Assembly: GCA_040767805.1 (NCBI GenBank)
Contig: JAXGNU010000005.1
Span: 64,001 to 128,000, forward strand
Length of the DNA stretch: 64,000 bases
Origin: Thermovirgaceae bacterium
GTDB taxonomy: Bacteria; Synergistota; Synergistia; Synergistales; Thermovirgaceae
Reading direction: 5' to 3'
In this document: positions 21,055-27,976 of the stretch, in pieces
Position numbering within the stretch: the first letter of the stretch is position 1
Layout: every line of letters begins with the position of its first letter
Translations under genes and position numbers: made by a program
The notes under the pieces: generated by a model
The model's input: the letters and a program-made list of their open reading frames with translations, nothing else
Database searches by the model: none
Told to the model about the DNA's origin: nothing

Positions 21055-22560
21055 GTGCAGCACACCGATGACCGTTCATCGTTCAGTGAGAAGCTGGCCC
21101 ACCCCGTGAGCCGGAGCCTCCTCCGGGACGTCACCGAGGATGAACTCAGGGCCATGGCTTTCCACGAAGCCGTGCCCAACGACCAGGGAGCCTCCCTCTA
21201 CGTAACGAAAATCCGCTCCAGGAGCGCGGCCTTCACCGATATCGTCTACGAGGTCGACGAGCCCCTGGTGGCGCTGCTGGAACAGGTATGGGGTTACCTC
21301 CGGTGGCAGCAGATGATCCGCGTAACGGCCAGGATAGGCTCACCGGACCGCCGGCCGATGCTGGCGAACTTCTACGTGACCCGCAGGTATGCCAGGCTGG
21401 CCCAGATGTTCGCCATGAACTTCTCCACGGAACTGGACCGGGACTATGCCGACATAGTCACCGTGGCCGTCCCCGAGTGGCACCAGCGCAAGATCATCGT
21501 CCTCCCCAGGCAGAGGGTCACCTACATCCTGGGGAGCGACTACTACGGCGAGACCAAGATGGCCACCCTGAGGATGGTCATGCACCTGGGGCGCGAAACG
21601 ATGAACGCCCTCGGCCTTCACGCCGGCAGCAAGGTCATCAGGGTGAACACCCCCAGGGGGCTGGAGGAGAAGGGAGTGCTCATCTTCGGGCTTTCCGGCA
21701 CCGGCAAGACCACCATCACCACGGCCGATCACGGCCTGGAGGCGCCCGAGGGCGTGGAGGTGCTTCAGGACGATATAAACATCCTCCTCTCCAACGGCAG
21801 CGCCCTGGGTTCGGAGGCCAACTTCTACATAAAGACCGACAACGTGACGAAGCAGCCGGCTCTCCTGTGGGCCGCCCGGGACAGGAAGGCCCTCATAGAG
21901 AACTGCTGGGTGGACGATGACGACCATATCAACTTCGACGACCACGCCCTGACGACCAACGGCAGGGCCGTCGTCCCCCGGGAGGCGATACCCAACACGT
22001 CGGGCCGGATAGACCTGGACAAGGTCGACTGCCTGCTTTTCAACATGAGGAGGTACGACACCCCGCCCATCGGGCGCCTCGTCTCGCCGGAGCAGGCCGC
22101 GGCCTACTTCATGCTGGGGGAGTCGACCATCACCAGCGCGGACGACCCCTCCAGGGTGGGCCAGGCCAAGAGAGTGGTTGGCTTCGACCCCTTCGTCATC
22201 GACAACCCCCACATCAACGGCAACAGGCTGTTGAGGATCCTGAGGGACAACCCGGGCATCCGGTGCTACCTCCTCAACACCGGGAGGATTGGGGGCAAGG
22301 ACGGGGCCAACATCACCGTCGAGGCCACCACCACGGCCGTCAGAGAAGCCATGAGGGAGACCCTGGAGTGGCGCTACGACGATATCCTGGGTTACGAGGT
22401 ACCCTCGTCGCTGCCGGTGCCCCAGGGAGGGGACCTCGACCCCTACCGGTGGTACTCCCGGGAGGAATACGCCTCCATGATCGGCGACCTTCGCAGGGAA
22501 AGAAAGGAATACCTGCAACAGTTCAAGGGCCTGGCCCCGGAGATCGTCGACGGGGTCTGA
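21055..22560 (+). CDS. pckA: Phosphoenolpyruvate carboxykinase (ATP)-family protein
   Basis: YYGETK, LHAG, FGLSGTGKTT P-loop, LQDD, NGRA, YLLNTG. Confidence 0.85.
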   Translation: MQHTDDRSSFSEKLAHPVSRSLLRDVTEDELRAMAFHEAVPNDQGASLYVTKIRSRSAAFTDIVYEVDEPLVALLEQVWGYLRWQQMIRVTARIGSPDRRPMLANFYVTRRYARLAQMFAMNFSTELDRDYADIVTVAVPEWHQRKIIVLPRQRVTYILGSDYYGETKMATLRMVMHLGRETMNALGLHAGSKVIRVNTPRGLEEKGVLIFGLSGTGKTTITTADHGLEAPEGVEVLQDDINILLSNGSALGSEANFYIKTDNVTKQPALLWAARDRKALIENCWVDDDDHINFDDHALTTNGRAVVPREAIPNTSGRIDLDKVDCLLFNMRRYDTPPIGRLVSPEQAAAYFMLGESTITSADDPSRVGQAKRVVGFDPFVIDNPHINGNRLLRILRDNPGIRCYLLNTGRIGGKDGANITVEATTTAVREAMRETLEWRYDDILGYEVPSSLPVPQGGDLDPYRWYSREEYASMIGDLRRERKEYLQQFKGLAPEIVDGV

Positions 22561-22584: not shown

Positions 22585-23220
22585 CTAGAGCCCTTCCTGG
22601 ACGGCCCTCTCCCAGGCGCTCCCGAGGTGGCAGGCCTCGCCCAGGACGAGGACCTCCAGCCCCCGGGGCGTCTCCTCCAGGAGGGTGATGCTGCCGTTCC
22701 CGAGGCGGAACCTCCAGAAGCTGTCCAAGGGCGCGTCGAAGACCCGGCAGAGGAGGACCTTGAGGACCGCGTCGTGGGAGAAGAGGGCCAGGGTGTCCCC
22801 CGGGCCCGCCAGGATCTCCCTGAAGGCCCCCCATGCCCGGCGGGAGACCCCGTGGAGGTTCTCCCCCCCCGGCATGGTCACCTCCTCCGGCCTGGAGTGC
22901 CAGAGGGAGAGCATCCCCGGCCACAGGCTTTCCACTTCCCCGGCGGTGTGCCCCTCCCAGAGACCATGGTCTATTTCGATCAAGCCCGGGTGGGTCTCAA
23001 TACCTAACCCAAGGAGGGAGGCCGCGGCCTCCGCCGTCCCGGCGGCGCGGGAGAGGGGGCTCGACACCACCCTGTCCACGGAAGAACGCAGGAGCGCCCC
23101 CGCGGCGGAGCGGGCCTGCCCCCTGCCCAGGTCGTTCAGGGGGATGTCCCTCCTGCCCTGGAAGCGCCCTTCCCGGTTCCAGTCCGTCTCGCCGTGCCTT
23201 ACCAGGAAGATCCGCCTCAT
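22585..23220 (-). CDS. Histidine-phosphatase-family, metal-independent phosphoserine phosphatase (iPSP/PspA type)
   Basis: RHGET catalytic motif; EIDHG with His at residue 85; last gene of the serC-serA operon. Confidence 0.8.
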   Translation of the reverse strand: MRRIFLVRHGETDWNREGRFQGRRDIPLNDLGRGQARSAAGALLRSSVDRVVSSPLSRAAGTAEAAASLLGLGIETHPGLIEIDHGLWEGHTAGEVESLWPGMLSLWHSRPEEVTMPGGENLHGVSRRAWGAFREILAGPGDTLALFSHDAVLKVLLCRVFDAPLDSFWRFRLGNGSITLLEETPRGLEVLVLGEACHLGSAWERAVQEGL

Positions 23221-24867
23221 CTAGAGGTCCTCCGTAAAGCGGACCTTCACCGCCCAGAGCAGGTCCACATCCTTTTTCAGTTCCTCCAGGACGGGCATGG
23301 GGACGTCGTCGTCGATCTGCAGGGCCCCCACGGCCAACCCGCTCCCGTTCCTGCGCCCCAGGGCGAAGTTGGCGATGTTCGTCCCGGCTCTCCCCAGGAG
23401 GGTCCCCACCTTCCCGATCACGCCGGGGCGGTCGTGGTTGCTGAAGAGGAGTACCGTCCCCTCGGGGATGAACTCTATCCAGTAGCCCCCTATGTTGACC
23501 ACCCTCTGGCGTCCCTCTTCGGTTATCGTCCCCGACACGGTGATGCCCTCCCGGGAACCGGGCGACAGGAGCTCCAGTTCGACCTGGTTGCGCCAGGTCC
23601 CGGGGCCGGTACGGCTCTCCTCGATCCTGATGCCCTTGTCCTCCGCCAGCATCGGCGCCGACATGTAGTTCACCTCGGGACCGTGGGAGTATTCCAGGTA
23701 GCCCTTGAGCCCAGCCACAGTGAAGGGGGAGAAATGATAGGGTATTTCGAAGCACACCGGCTCGTCGGCGGGCGAGAAGAGGGGGCCCCGCAGGCTGACC
23801 TTCAGCCGCGTAGCCGGCTCCCGCGAGAGGTGCGCCGCCAGGTAACCGAGTTTGCGGGCCAGCGAAAGGAAGGCCCTGGTGCCCTCGGGGAGGGACTGCT
23901 CCACGAAAGGTAAGTTCACGGCGTTCTCGCAGGGTTTCCCCTTGAGGGCGGCCAGGAGGTTCGAGCAGGCTATGACGGCCACCGCCGACTGGGCCTCCTC
24001 GGTGTTGGCCCCGATGTGGGGCGTCAAGACCACCTTCTCACGGATATCATCGGCAAGCAGGGGGTTGTCGGGCCGCGGGGGTTCGCCGTCGTAGACGTCG
24101 ATGGCGGCCCCGGCCAGGTGCCCTGAGCGCAGGGCCTCCGCGCAGGCAGCCTCGTCCACGAGCCCGCCCCTGGCGCAGTTGACCAGGTAGGCTCCCGGCC
24201 TGCAGGCTTTTATTGCCTCCCCGTCGATGATACCCCGCGTCTCGGACGTCAGGGGGACGTGCAGGGTGACCACGTCGGCCAGGGACAGGGCGCCCTTGAG
24301 GTCTTCCATCAGGCGGACGCCGGCCCTGTCGGCCTTGGCCTGGGAGACGTAGGGGTCGTAGGCGGAAACCTCCATGCCGAAAGCCCTGCACCGGGCCGCC
24401 ACCTGGGTCCCTATCCTGCCCAGCCCGACGATGAGGAGCCTTTTGCCCGAGAGCTGCCTGCCCAGGAAGCGGCTCCTCTTCCACTCCCCGGAGGTCAGCG
24501 ATTGAAAGGCCTGGGGTACCTTCCTTACCATGGAGAGCATCACGGCCATGGTGTGTTCCGTCGCCGCCAAGGTGTTCCCCGTGGGCGCGTTTATGACCAC
24601 GACGCCCCTGCGGCTAGCTTCGGCCAGGTCGATGTTGTCCAGCCCTACGCCGGCCCTCGCCGCAGCCCGCAGCCTTTTCGCGGCGTCCAGGATCTCGGGG
24701 TCGAGGGGGGTCCCGCTCCGGGTGATCATCCCGTCCACGTCCCCCACCTCCGCGAGGAGTTCCTCCCGGGAGAGGCCCGTTTTGACGAGCAACTGCACCT
24801 CCGGGTCCTGCCGAAGTACATCCAGCCCAGCCTCGGAGATATTTTCCGTTACCAGTACCTTCAGCAT
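23221..24867 (-). CDS. serA: D-3-phosphoglycerate dehydrogenase (type I, ASB+ACT)
   Basis: RAGVGLDNID, GLGRIG, NCARGG, TPHIGA, DRPGVIG ACT domain; ATG 24867 overlaps the upstream stop. Confidence 0.95.
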   Translation of the reverse strand: MLKVLVTENISEAGLDVLRQDPEVQLLVKTGLSREELLAEVGDVDGMITRSGTPLDPEILDAAKRLRAAARAGVGLDNIDLAEASRRGVVVINAPTGNTLAATEHTMAVMLSMVRKVPQAFQSLTSGEWKRSRFLGRQLSGKRLLIVGLGRIGTQVAARCRAFGMEVSAYDPYVSQAKADRAGVRLMEDLKGALSLADVVTLHVPLTSETRGIIDGEAIKACRPGAYLVNCARGGLVDEAACAEALRSGHLAGAAIDVYDGEPPRPDNPLLADDIREKVVLTPHIGANTEEAQSAVAVIACSNLLAALKGKPCENAVNLPFVEQSLPEGTRAFLSLARKLGYLAAHLSREPATRLKVSLRGPLFSPADEPVCFEIPYHFSPFTVAGLKGYLEYSHGPEVNYMSAPMLAEDKGIRIEESRTGPGTWRNQVELELLSPGSREGITVSGTITEEGRQRVVNIGGYWIEFIPEGTVLLFSNHDRPGVIGKVGTLLGRAGTNIANFALGRRNGSGLAVGALQIDDDVPMPVLEELKKDVDLLWAVKVRFTEDL

Positions 24868-26012
24868 GACCGATCCCCTTCCCTTTCCCACGTCTTGAAG
24901 GCTTTGTCCAGAAAACCGCCCCCCGCGTCGATGCCGCATTCCCTGGCTGCGCCGAAGACTCCGCCGGCCAGGAGGCATACCTCCGGCCACCCACCGGGGT
25001 TGTAGTGGGCGATCCGCAGGGTGCCGCCGCCCCTTCCCTGCCCCTCGGCGACGGTGATGCCCATATCTTCGAGGGCCTTCTTCATGGGCCGCTCTTTCCC
25101 TGAGGGCACCTCGAGGGCGGTCATGACGGGCGATCGGTACTCCCTTTCCCTCACGAAAAGTTCGAAACCCATCGCCTCGCAGGCGGCCTCGAAGGAGCGA
25201 GCCTTCCTGCGCGTCCTGTCGGCCCAGGCGTCCCATCCGAAGCCCTCGAGAAGGCGGAGCGACTCGGCCAGTCCGTAAAAGACGCTCACGGGAGGAGTGA
25301 AGGGGTTCTGGGGCCTCCCCTTTTTCAGGAATCTCCTGTGGAGGGTCAGGTCGAAGAAGTATGAGGGGCAGGCCCCCTTGGCGGCCCTTTCCCAACCCCG
25401 TTCCGAGAGGTGGACCAGGGCAAGGCCGGGGGGAGCGAGAAGCCCCTTCTGGGAGCAGGAGGCGAGGCCGTCGATCCCCCACTTCGAGGGGCGGCAGGTC
25501 ATGGCTCCGAGGGAGCTCACGGCGTCGACCAGCACAAGCGGTCCGTCGGCGGGGACCTCCGCCAGGAGTTCTTCCAGGGGGTTGACCACGCCCGTGGAAG
25601 TCTCGTGGTGGGTGAAAAGTAGTGCATCAGCCCCGGGATATCTTTCCAGGGCTTCCCTGACGTGCCCTCTCGTGAATCCCTCGCCCCGGGGTGCGTCAAG
25701 GGCGTGGATCTTGGCGCCTCTCCTCGATGCGATCTCCCGGAAACGGTCCCCGAAGGTCCCGCAGGAGAAGGAGATCACCTCGTCGTCGGGCGACAACAGG
25801 TTGGCCGTCAGGGTTTCCAGGGCCCCTGTGCCGGAACCCGGAAGGATGACCACGGGTTCCTCGACGTCCAGGAGTCTTTCAAGGCGGCCCGTTACTTCCT
25901 CCAGCAGGTCGGACCATTCCTCGCTCCGATGGCTGATCATGGGCCCGGCCGCCGCCCTCCTGACGGAAAAGGGCACGTCCACCGGCCCGGGAGTGTACAG
26001 GTATCGCGTCAT
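24861..26012 (-). CDS. Class V PLP aminotransferase, probable phosphoserine aminotransferase (alanine-glyoxylate-type fold)
   Basis: YTPGPV, GSGTGALE, HHETSTGV, VDAVSS, SQKGLLAPPG; first gene of the ser operon. Confidence 0.85.
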   Translation of the reverse strand: MTRYLYTPGPVDVPFSVRRAAAGPMISHRSEEWSDLLEEVTGRLERLLDVEEPVVILPGSGTGALETLTANLLSPDDEVISFSCGTFGDRFREIASRRGAKIHALDAPRGEGFTRGHVREALERYPGADALLFTHHETSTGVVNPLEELLAEVPADGPLVLVDAVSSLGAMTCRPSKWGIDGLASCSQKGLLAPPGLALVHLSERGWERAAKGACPSYFFDLTLHRRFLKKGRPQNPFTPPVSVFYGLAESLRLLEGFGWDAWADRTRRKARSFEAACEAMGFELFVREREYRSPVMTALEVPSGKERPMKKALEDMGITVAEGQGRGGGTLRIAHYNPGGWPEVCLLAGGVFGAARECGIDAGGGFLDKAFKTWEREGDRSC

Positions 26013-26030
26013 GGGATCCCCTCCTCGTAG

Positions 26031-26064
26031 ATAAAAAAGGCCGGGAGAACACTTCTCCCGGCCT
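26031..26064 (-). terminator. Attenuator terminator of the ser operon leader
   Basis: Minus strand AGGCCGGGAGAA-GTG-TTCTCCCGGCCT-TTTTTAT, immediately upstream of the aminotransferase RBS. Confidence 0.9.
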
Positions 26065-26108
26065 GTATCTCCCTGAAACGCTGTGTTTTTTCCCCAGTTG
26101 TCCTGGGT

Positions 26109-26222
26109 CTACCGCGGTCCTCCCCCTGCCGGCAAAGAGAGGCCTGCCCTTCCGGGCCAACCGGAAGAGGAGCTGGAAGAAGAGCTACCGGCCTTGCCGA
26201 CAAAAAGGTAAACCTCGATCAA
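26109..26222 (-). CDS. Serine-rich leader peptide MIEVYLFVGKAGSSSSSSSSGWPGRAGLSLPAGGGPR (37 aa)
   Basis: TTG start after GGGGAAGTG; codons 13-20 are AGC TCT TCT TCC AGC TCC TCT TCC; TAG stop before the terminator. Confidence 0.85.
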   Translation of the reverse strand: MIEVYLFVGKAGSSSSSSSSGWPGRAGLSLPAGGGPR

Positions 26223-26317
26223 GAGAAAACACTTCCCCGTGAAAACATTGTCCGATTTATACCACGAGAGCGTTCAAAGGTAAATAGCCGCCCCGGGCCC
26301 CGGGCGGCGCCTCTTGT

Positions 26318-26413: not shown

Positions 26414-27976
26414 ATGAGGATAGCCTGTGTCCAGATGGAAGCGCCGGAATTGGCCGATTTTGAAAAGACTTTTAGCAGGATCCAACGTCTCCTGGATGAG
26501 GCCCTCCGGCCCGGCGTCGACCTGGTGGTGTTCCCGGAATGCTCATGGCCGGCCTACTTCATCGATCCCGCGGAGAAACAGTCCCTCAAGGAGGCCCTGT
26601 CGCTCAACGAACGATTGATCGACCATATCAGCAGGAAAGCCAGTGAACACGCTTCCTACGTGGCTTTCGGGCTGGTGGAGGAAAAGGACGGGAAGCTCGG
26701 CAACAATGCCATCCTCGTGGACCCCTCGGGAGAAATAGTCCTCAGGGTGTCAAAGATGAACCTTTGGCATTTCGACAGGGACCTCTACGAGCCGGGCCGA
26801 AGTTTTGACGTGGTCGATTCACCCTTTGGGCGGATCGGCCTCCTGATATGCGCCGACGCGCGTCTCCCGGAAATCGCCCGGGTGCTCTCCGTGATGGGGG
26901 CCGATCTCATCATCGACCCGGCGAACCTCACGGGCTACGCCGCTTCACACCAGGGCCTGACTAACCCGCAGCTGGATTTCATGCTGCCCGCCAGGGCTTT
27001 CGAGAACGGGGTATGGTGGGTCCTCTCAAACAAGTGCGGGATCGAATCGGCGGCGGTGCCCTACGTGGGCGGCAGCAGGGTGATATCCCCGGAGGGGGTC
27101 CTCGTCGCCTCGGCAAGCCCGGACAGGGAAGAAGTCATCTTCGCCGATATAGACCTGCCGGTGAAAAGGCCCGCGGCCCTTCCGGAAAGGGCGCCGGCGG
27201 CGTACGGGGTGCTCACTGAGCCCACCGAGAATCTTCCTGTGACGGGGATCACTACCCAACCCGCCATCCCCTCCTGCAATAGCTTTTTCCTGGGAGCCGC
27301 CCAGTTCGGGGCCGGTGATGCCGAAGAGTACGTCCTCAAGGCAGGGAAGCACCTGGCCGCACTGGGGCGGCTGCATGCGTCCGTCGCGGCCCTCCCCCCG
27401 GCCGGCTTTCTTCCCCCCAAGGGGATCCTCCATTTAGCCGAAGCAATAAGGGAAAGGTATGGAGCGGCGATCGGGGGGATGGTCGTCGCCCTCGCCCACG
27501 GCGGGGGTGACGGTGAACCCCTTGGAGTACTTTTCGACGCGGGGAAGATCCTGGCATCCTCCCGGGGCCTTCCGCCCCTCTCGGGATCGGATGTCATCGG
27601 GACGCCCCACGGTAACTTCGCCTTCGTCCACGGCGAGGGGATCGTCCTCCCCGAATACGCCAGGATCCTGACCCTCCTGGGCGCGGATTTGCTGTTTTCC
27701 CTTACGGACACCTTGACGGGGCCTTCCCTTGAGATCGCCAGGACGCGGGCCTACGAGAACAAGGTCTTCCTGGTGCGCGCCGCCTCCCCCGGTGAGGGCA
27801 AGAGGTCCTTCATCTGTGACCCCTACGGGAGGGTCCTCTCCAGTGCCTTCATCGGGGTTGAGCAGGTCTTCGGCTGCCAGGCGGAACTCTTGTCGGCGAG
27901 GTGCAAAGAGGTCGTCCCGGGCACCGACGTGATAAGAGGCAGGAGACCTTCCGACTATCGGTCGCTCTGCCGGTAA
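26414..27976 (+). CDS. Carbon-nitrogen hydrolase (nitrilase superfamily) with a tandem second degenerate domain
   Basis: N-domain has the VFPE / SKMNL / LICAD triad; C-domain repeats the fold (PEYARILTLLGADL, RAYEN, DPYG) without the triad. Confidence 0.85.
   Translation: MRIACVQMEAPELADFEKTFSRIQRLLDEALRPGVDLVVFPECSWPAYFIDPAEKQSLKEALSLNERLIDHISRKASEHASYVAFGLVEEKDGKLGNNAILVDPSGEIVLRVSKMNLWHFDRDLYEPGRSFDVVDSPFGRIGLLICADARLPEIARVLSVMGADLIIDPANLTGYAASHQGLTNPQLDFMLPARAFENGVWWVLSNKCGIESAAVPYVGGSRVISPEGVLVASASPDREEVIFADIDLPVKRPAALPERAPAAYGVLTEPTENLPVTGITTQPAIPSCNSFFLGAAQFGAGDAEEYVLKAGKHLAALGRLHASVAALPPAGFLPPKGILHLAEAIRERYGAAIGGMVVALAHGGGDGEPLGVLFDAGKILASSRGLPPLSGSDVIGTPHGNFAFVHGEGIVLPEYARILTLLGADLLFSLTDTLTGPSLEIARTRAYENKVFLVRAASPGEGKRSFICDPYGRVLSSAFIGVEQVFGCQAELLSARCKEVVPGTDVIRGRRPSDYRSLCR

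Follow-up and report, generated by a model that had tools for sequence, protein, structure and literature searches.

The his leader of E. coli and Salmonella (hisL; Rfam His_leader, RF00514) contains a short leader ORF with seven uninterrupted His codons, followed by a terminator before the first gene. At trp, the terminator is thermodynamically favored and the decision is kinetic. Multivalent leaders include those of thr (Thr and Ile) and ilv (Leu, Val and Ile). Known controls of serine biosynthesis are the feedback inhibition of SerA and the action of protein regulators; T-boxes are used in Firmicutes, and alpha-proteobacteria have a small RNA that is so far unexplained.

RNA elements have been described at related genes. 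The serC leader RNA (RF00517), which precedes the serC–serA operon in alpha-proteobacteria, is a small two-hairpin RNA that hides the RBS and has no ORF, terminator or known ligand (Corbino et al., 2005; PMC1273637). Serine T-box leaders are exemplified by that of serA of Paenibacillus polymyxa (PMC8002221). The element uORFC-8-2, located before cysS in Rhodobacterales, is an SD-led Cys-codon uORF with two tandem Cys codons in a stem and a terminator; it is a recently recognized attenuator for a ‘non-classical’ amino acid and was found by comparative genomics (Brewer et al., 2021; PMC8632094). A preliminary interpretation of the present locus made from its letters only (the sequence-only reading) knew of no well-described serine version of such an attenuator, and no serine-specific leader-peptide attenuator was found in the literature searched. 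The screen of Stav et al. (2019), which included the Synergistetes Thermovirga lienii, reports nothing on serine genes in its main text or in one of its supplements.

The locus analyzed here lies within a window of 64,000 nt from a Thermovirgaceae bacterium (Synergistota). Two divergent genes are separated by a gap of 400 nt, and the minus strand carries, in this order, a promoter, a leader ORF, hairpins, a terminator and an operon. This arrangement is probably a ribosome-mediated leader-peptide transcription attenuator which senses charged tRNA-Ser and controls a phosphoserine-pathway operon.

The operon (22585–26012, minus strand) consists of three tightly packed genes. Gene 1 (24861–26012, minus strand) encodes a class-V aminotransferase (PF00266) and starts with an ATG at 26012, with its RBS at 26026–26018. 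The ATG of gene 2 (23221–24867, minus strand; ATG at 24867), which encodes SerA (PGDH), overlaps the gene 1 stop codon, and the ATG of gene 3 (22585–23220, minus strand), which encodes a PspA-like histidine phosphatase, abuts the gene 2 stop codon. Judging from its sequence, the gene 2 product is a bona fide PGDH (SerA): it passes the PGDH equivalog TIGR01327 (561 bits vs. a cut-off of 454) and contains PGDH_inter and ACT domains. Gene 1 is below every NCBIfam cut-off, and gene 3 attains 131 bits with the PspA phosphoserine phosphatase model, which is among its best matches and has a cut-off of 350. Thus, in the operon name serC–serA–pspA proposed earlier, serA is well founded, whereas ‘serC’ (gene 1) and ‘pspA’ (gene 3) come from gene context. 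The combination of SerA, an AGXT-type aminotransferase and a PspA-type phosphatase represents the phosphoserine pathway described in Hydrogenobacter and Synechocystis, and the operon is therefore read as biosynthetic. A catabolic operon composed of serine-glyoxylate aminotransferase and hydroxypyruvate reductase was set aside because of the PGDH equivalog match of gene 2 and its PGDH_inter and ACT domains. A PEP carboxykinase-type gene (21055–22560, plus strand; NF006821, 450 bits) is convergent with the 3′ end of the operon. The divergent neighbor (26414–27976, plus strand) encodes a 520-aa protein, the first 250 residues of which form a C-N hydrolase (nitrilase-type) domain; the remaining residues (about 270) match no Pfam family at an E-value of 1e-5 or better.

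The promoter read from the sequence comprises a −35 element TTTACC (26284–26279, minus strand), a spacer of 17 nt and an extended −10 element TGgTATAAA (26264–26256, minus strand; TATAAA at 26261–26256, TG at 26264–26263). The candidate TTTACC-N17-TATAAA of the sequence-only reading is thus present, and relatives carry a TGnTATAA(A)-like box at the equivalent position upstream of the leader. An automated promoter scan, the rule of which demands T as the last −10 base, did not list this promoter. Transcription would start near 26249, about 27 nt ahead of the leader ORF. Between the divergent genes and directly upstream of the −35 box, a perfect 7-bp GC palindrome with an 8-nt loop is found (26287–26308; GCCGCCC...GGGCGGC), which was scored as terminator-like on both strands; the 92% relative L002 carries a related hairpin in the corresponding position. 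This palindrome could be an operator or an insulator. In metatranscriptome run X3, one 152-nt contig without mismatch covers 26075–26226, a region inside the leader and upstream of the terminator; this contig shows neither transcript ends nor levels and is too little to call a leader transcript. Runs X2 and X4 include short contigs within the first gene. The RNA libraries consist of contigs, which hold no information on 5′ ends, termination or levels, and the X1 library is probably DNA.

A short ORF preceded by an SD-like GGGGAAG (26238–26232, minus strand) is located in the 5′ leader of this amino-acid biosynthesis operon. The ORF (26109–26222, minus strand) has 37 codons with a TTG start at 26222 and a TAG stop at 26111–26109. 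It contains an unbroken run of eight codons for serine, the product of the pathway that the operon is read to encode (AGC TCT TCT TCC AGC TCC TCT TCC; 26163–26186, minus strand), which are presumed to be the sensing codons; the previously noted 37-aa leader with eight tandem Ser codons mixing AGC, TCT and TCC is accurate in all these respects. TCT is rare, representing 5.7% of the Ser codons of the genome, yet occupies three of the eight positions in the run. The leader is single-copy in this genome according to nhmmer (self match, E 4.8e-52): in the assembly, which is 81% complete, the next match is the terminator on the other strand (E 0.002), followed by noise at E of at least 0.11. Genome-wide, 536 short frames have at least four Ser codons, a number which is uninformative. 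A 9-codon uORF overlapping the TTG start (26219–26248, minus strand) exists as reported earlier and lies at the inferred transcript 5′ end, but its ATG is not kept in relatives (ATT in a 92%-identical relative); a function of this uORF was rejected, and it is probably due to chance.

The leader was compared at the level of the order using 41 related Synergistota genomes, in which 24 loci encode a gene 1 orthologue at 46–100% identity. Upstream DNA was taken from these loci and from a contig-start fragment (L027). Later counts omit L027, which has no upstream sequence, and L024, an orthologous locus in which no Ser-rich ORF is seen close to the gene; contig ends truncate L003 and L009, in both of which the 3′ portion of a frame that is homologous or Ser-rich can still be seen. 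At all 21 assessable loci, the orthologous aminotransferase gene is preceded by a short ORF that has an SD and, in frame, a core rich in Ser codons. The ORFs were called at 27–45 codons in 20 of the 21; the exception, L015, has 60 codons from a TTG further upstream and also offers a 40-codon version starting with ATG. When 23 orthologous upstream regions were scanned, 21 showed a strong hairpin followed by a T-run; the hairpin and T-run of L018 lie further upstream and were set by hand, and L019 has a hairpin without a T-run. The leader terminator and the first gene are separated in L017 and L018 (genus g7) by an additional stretch of about 100 nt, which carries another hairpin and T-run and may represent a second tandem control element.

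Ser accounts for 21.9% of the codons in the 21 leaders (181 codons), compared with about 5.4% in long open frames of this genome; the corresponding values are 14.5% and about 10.9% for Gly, and 3.8% and about 0.9% for Cys. All six Ser codons occur (TCC 75, TCT 45, TCA 27, AGC 20, AGT 9, TCG 5), so that the use of both codon families that had been noticed in the single leader extends to all 21 leaders taken together (TCN 152 and AGY 29 of 181). The best 10-codon window contains four to nine Ser codons, compared with zero to four in reverse complements under the same selection, and at least five Ser per 10 codons were seen in just 30 of 1050 mononucleotide shuffles. A phylum-wide search detected the gene 1 orthologue in 72 of 201 genomes at E ≤ 1e-70. 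From these results a further set of 28 upstream regions, one or two per genus, was chosen by genus label only, and 21 of the 28 loci, all from other genera, have an ORF with at least five Ser in 10 codons. Because this test takes the most Ser-rich ORF, it is biased upward, and the 30 of 1050 shuffles serve as its yardstick. No such ORF was found in the other seven (L058, L063, L072, L074, L075, L076 and L081), of which L081 belongs to another order. The search for poly-Ser uORFs in relatives suggested in the sequence-only reading therefore yielded a Ser-rich frame in 21 of 21 assessable and 21 of 28 further loci; that reading had also named a Ser run out of frame in relatives as evidence against itself, and the run proved to be conserved in frame. 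Between genera, the leader nucleotides cannot be aligned, yet the SD, the start codon and the Ser-rich frame persist.

Cys codons often adjoin Ser codons in the leaders of L010, L013, L016–L023 and L054–L073 (e.g., ...GCGSCSS... and ...SSSCGGSGC...). Cysteine and glycine are both made from serine. The juxtaposition suggests joint sensing of serine and of the cysteine made from it, and judging from codon content the family may sense the serine family of amino acids (Ser, Cys and Gly).

Close relatives provide evidence for translation. A pattern of 25 bases derived from hairpin H1 (see below), with three free positions, identified 21 metagenome loci, 17 of them distinct; after removal of two truncated and five duplicate sequences and addition of six genome loci, an alignment of 20 sequences was obtained. 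A search of genome contigs gave one true relative, a Synergistetes MAG with a gene 1 identity of 92%. The ORF is open from one shared alignment column in all 20 sequences, with 35–40 codons including 7–11 Ser codons. At this column, the start codon is TTG in nine, GTG in nine and ATG in two. All 16 gaps within the shared ORF are 3, 6 or 9 nt long; the four gaps of 1 or 2 nt are confined to the 3′-extended portion of two sequences, and their lengths add up to a multiple of three. Past the leader stop codon, only three of 60 gaps are 3 nt long. As start codons interchange and ORF indels are in frame in the 20 relatives, the leader is read as a translated frame, and its translation is very probable on these comparative grounds. 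The Ser run is broken by Thr, Phe or Leu in some close relatives and is thus not sacrosanct.

The 226-nt leader region folds better than all of 200 shuffles (z −3.5). A search of Rfam at E ≤ 10 gave eight matches with E-values of 0.5–8, all at 22 bits or less compared with gathering scores of 37–60; no amino-acid leader, T-box or serC leader RF00517 was among them. Several helices are recognizable. Segment 1 (GTCGGCAAGG; 26192–26201, minus strand), directly 5′ of the Ser run, pairs with 26137–26128 (duplex, −24.8 kcal/mol). The 6-bp core of this 1:2 pairing around the Ser run, postulated previously, is paired in 20 of 20 relatives, but changes within it are one-sided only. Hairpin H1 (26147–26169, minus strand; −14.0 kcal/mol) is formed by the last Ser codons plus Gly (26169–26161) and CCGGAAGGG (26155–26147). 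H1, which supplied the search pattern, is invariant in all 20 close relatives, and one compensatory change is seen in the relative L077; its 5′ strand resembles the 3′ arm of the terminator. Hairpin P2 (26116–26144, minus strand; −15.1 kcal/mol) lies inside the ORF and pairs GGCCTCTCTTTG with CAGGGGGAGG-CC, its 5′ strand corresponding to segment 2 of the sequence-only reading. In P2, 95% of the cells are paired across the 20 relatives and three of 12 pairs change on both sides; it is the only helix with covariation, and it does not fit the four-segment scheme. A smaller hairpin, P3, follows (26107–26093, minus strand; −8.9 kcal/mol). The leader stop codon (26109–26111) is replaced by the Ser codon TCA in 10 of 20 close relatives, in which the ORF extends three to five codons more; a ribosome stalled at that extra TCA would cover the 3′ strand of P2.

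An intrinsic terminator (26033–26064, minus strand; −22.5 kcal/mol) is located between the leader ORF and the first structural gene. It has a 12-bp stem (26064–26053 and 26049–26038), a GTG loop and a run of six T at 26038–26033, the first of which also closes the stem, consistent with the 12-bp terminator with a U-tract ahead of the first RBS described earlier. The stem is near-invariant: eight of 11 pairs never vary in the 20-sequence alignment. When H1, P2 and the terminator were taken jointly, none of 500 shuffles reached their covariation score. The sequence AATACA (26065–26070) abuts the 5′ side of the stem and is kept in 17 of 20 family members, with GATACA in this genome and AATATA in two; the motif is also seen in more distant relatives, and no pairing partner or other reason for this site was found. 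The operon begins 20 bases past the terminator, and the interval from terminator to first gene (about 25 nt) contains no promoter-like site. Since there is no room for a promoter, the operon must be transcribed through the terminator.

For the antiterminator, the pairing initially proposed is 2:3, in which 26144–26133 pairs with segment 3 (CAGGGAGATACAGGCC; 26060–26075, minus strand) to sequester the base of the terminator. The duplex can form in this genome (−18.6 kcal/mol), but across the 20 relatives 83.7% of the cells are paired vs. 83.4% in shuffles, the 8-bp arm is 75.5% paired and there is no covariation; the sequestration is partial, as just five of 12 nt of the terminator 5′ arm are covered. 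We regard 2:3 as unlikely to be the antiterminator. Another candidate strand is TTTGCCGGC (26128–26136, minus strand), which is complementary to 26062–26054 and to segment 1 (−13.5 to −14.4 kcal/mol); both TTTGCCGGC and its partner in the terminator arm are invariant in 20 of 20 relatives. Downstream of the Ser run, the best complement to the terminator 5′ arm is confined to the region upstream of the stop codon in 17 of the 21 orthologous leaders, which represent several genera; the own partner of this post-run segment sits at or just before the Ser run. The z-scores of the antiterminator duplex are modest, being −1.5 or lower in nine or seven of the 21 leaders in two computations.

Folding of full-length and nascent transcripts was analyzed either ribosome-free or with a footprint placed over each Ser codon or over the stop codon, using MFE, pairing probabilities and ensemble free energies for this genome, the 21 orthologous leaders and the 20 close relatives. 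In these three sets, masked equilibrium folding revealed no state-specific sequestration of the terminator arm. The terminator is present in every full-length MFE with or without the footprint, and its 5′ arm is paired to something in every folding state. Every strand can pair with every other because CCGG/GGCC cores are common to all strands, and many pairings arise from this composition alone. In the stalled-state MFE of this genome, P2 is kept and the terminator arm is almost free (1 kcal/mol by MFE, 2.1 by ensemble); P2 can still form while a ribosome occupies the Ser run, and it would be a competitor of both candidate antiterminators. When the Ser run of L004 is masked, the MFE is a relay: the H1 3′ strand, once freed, binds the 5′ part of the P2 strand, and the terminator arm is held by TTTGCCGGC. 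Folds that leave this arm free are all at least 7 kcal/mol worse. The relay structure lies 0.7 kcal/mol above the MFE in L005 and 6 kcal/mol above it in this genome, where P2 persists. The stalled-state MFE pairs the arm with TTTGCCGGC in six of the 20 relatives, not including this genome; in the other 14, pairing of the arm is limited to four bases of its core, which contact the H1 3′ strand. In the unstalled states of the 20 relatives, the arm is sequestered to about the same extent. A his-type relay in which 26136–26128 pairs with 26062–26054, aided by the freed H1 3′ strand on 26142–26137, is a tentative assignment that we consider somewhat short of probable, and whether the antiterminator is something else again is nearly an even call. 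All parts of an attenuator appear to be present at this locus, with the antiterminator strand at the level of a candidate.

The lack of a switch in ribosome-masked folding could also fit an RNA that is sensed directly, i.e., a riboswitch whose ligand is serine or some related metabolite, or the target of a TRAP-like protein bound to UCN repeats, with the ORF being incidental. TRAP binds triplet repeats. Further points in this direction are that P2 covaries and that H1, TTTGCCGGC and the terminator arms are more conserved than the downstream protein (62–92% identity). However, the start codon toggles among TTG, GTG and ATG only, the indels of the ORF are in frame, and between genera it is the SD, the start and the Ser-rich frame that persist rather than alignable nucleotides. 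In addition, AGC and AGT, which are ill-suited to a CU-rich binding motif, make up 29 of the 181 Ser codons, and no Rfam family matches. Direct sensing is thus very unlikely.

Alternatively, the leader might be translated and operate by a logic different from those of trp and his, with the last Ser codons serving as the antiterminator strand, or with a pyrBI-like dependence on coupling distance. The Ser-run strand pairs with 10 of 12 nt of the terminator 5′ arm (−15.7 kcal/mol in this genome), and nine of these 10 pairs are kept in all 20 relatives. In the 21 leaders, this pairing has a median of −15.6 kcal/mol and z-scores of −1.5 or lower in 11, which is at least as good as the post-run strand, and an inverted copy of H1 serves as the terminator stem in L061 and L062. 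The match may nonetheless be compositional, as CU-rich Ser codons pair with any GA-rich arm. Moreover, a ribosome on the Ser codons would then favor termination, and termination upon serine starvation would be senseless in an operon that is biosynthetic and encodes a SerA with an ACT domain. Such a logic is highly improbable. In L061 and L062, which belong to another family, the inverted copy is formed by GCCGGAAGGG and CCCTTCCGGC, and P2 is changed compensatorily.

A further reading is that the Ser-rich peptide is the product of a separate small gene that ends in a terminator of its own, and that the operon is expressed by constitutive leak-through or from an unseen promoter. This is hardly credible even though the peptide part GW(S/P)GR(A/G)GL-LPA is conserved in the close family, because this conservation coincides with paired RNA strands, the peptides of other genera share just their Ser/Gly/Cys richness, the short terminator-to-gene interval has no promoter-like site, and the leader stays linked to the serine operon across the order.

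A serine-sensing leader-peptide attenuator is much the best reading, as the starts alternate among TTG, GTG and ATG and the indels of the shared ORF occur in threes. The trp/his/thr-type attenuation put forward in the sequence-only reading is supported by the conserved Ser-rich ORF and terminator, by the coding signature and by the necessity of read-through. According to this attenuation model, transcription would start about 27 nt ahead of the 37-codon leader ORF. When seryl-tRNA is ample, the ribosome would move past all eight Ser codons, the RNA would adopt its default hairpins (H1 or segment 1:2, and then P2) and form the 12-bp terminator, and transcription would end 20 nt ahead of the first gene. 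When seryl-tRNA is scarce, the ribosome would stall on the Ser run, covering segment 1 and the H1 5′ strand, and the pyrimidine-rich strand 26144–26128 would be free to hold the terminator 5′ arm, such that RNA polymerase would enter the operon. We thus infer that stalling causes read-through.

A more specific idea is that an attenuator for Ser, with Cys and Gly, is conserved across most Synergistota and built as a relay of purine and pyrimidine strands, in which the Ser-codon hairpin resembles an inverted terminator closely enough to be a near-copy of it and P2 has the role of an anti-antiterminator. This is possible though doubtful; if it is true, the switch would operate in several steps, in his-like fashion or by means of a decoy, and not by the four-segment scheme of trp, and no leader-peptide control of serine biosynthesis would have been described before it. 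More generally, serine sensing at this leader would represent a new amino-acid specificity of a textbook mechanism, which is a moderate surprise. If confirmed, it would extend the list of amino acids detected via ribosome stalling to serine, perhaps along with cysteine and glycine, and the mechanism would be widely used in a phylum of amino-acid fermenters in which such control was not previously known. It would also provide an annotation rule, i.e., a short Ser-rich ORF and a terminator ahead of genes for a class-V aminotransferase and serA, which in turn supports placing the aminotransferase and the histidine phosphatase in the phosphoserine pathway.

Compared with the systems known at serine and cysteine genes, as far as the accounts cited above describe them, this leader resembles RF00517 in being a cis element ahead of a serC–serA-type operon, but differs from it in having an ORF and a terminator. 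Like serine T-boxes, it would be an RNA-level leader switch at the same kind of gene with tRNA-Ser charging as the signal; unlike them, it would need translation, whereas a T-box binds uncharged tRNA directly, and no T-box match was found here. With uORFC-8-2, it shares an SD-led uORF, tandem cognate codons within a stem and a terminator, although uORFC-8-2 has two Cys codons, a tRNA synthetase gene downstream and a host in another phylum. The mixture of Ser with Cys and Gly codons in other Synergistota genera is reminiscent of the multivalent thr and ilv leaders, but the leader of this genome has no Cys codons, and its Gly codons may just supply purine strands.

As in the four-segment model of trpL, segment 1 lies beside the sensing codons and segment 2 fits both segment 1 and the terminator 5′ arm; in both cases the terminator is thermodynamically favored, so that any switch must be kinetic. 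Unlike in trpL, the stop codon is located 17 nt past segment 2, and a terminating ribosome would cover the extra P2 strand but not segment 2; there are eight sensing codons instead of the two of trpL. The present leader differs from hisL in amino acid and phylum and in the absence of a covariance-model match; in addition, the 3′ strand of the middle hairpin is not complementary to the terminator arm, and the chain of pairings in the antiterminated state is a candidate only. Like hisL, it has a long uninterrupted run of cognate codons (eight Ser vs. seven His) which forms the 5′ strand of the first of successive hairpins, and an intrinsic terminator directly before the first biosynthetic gene.
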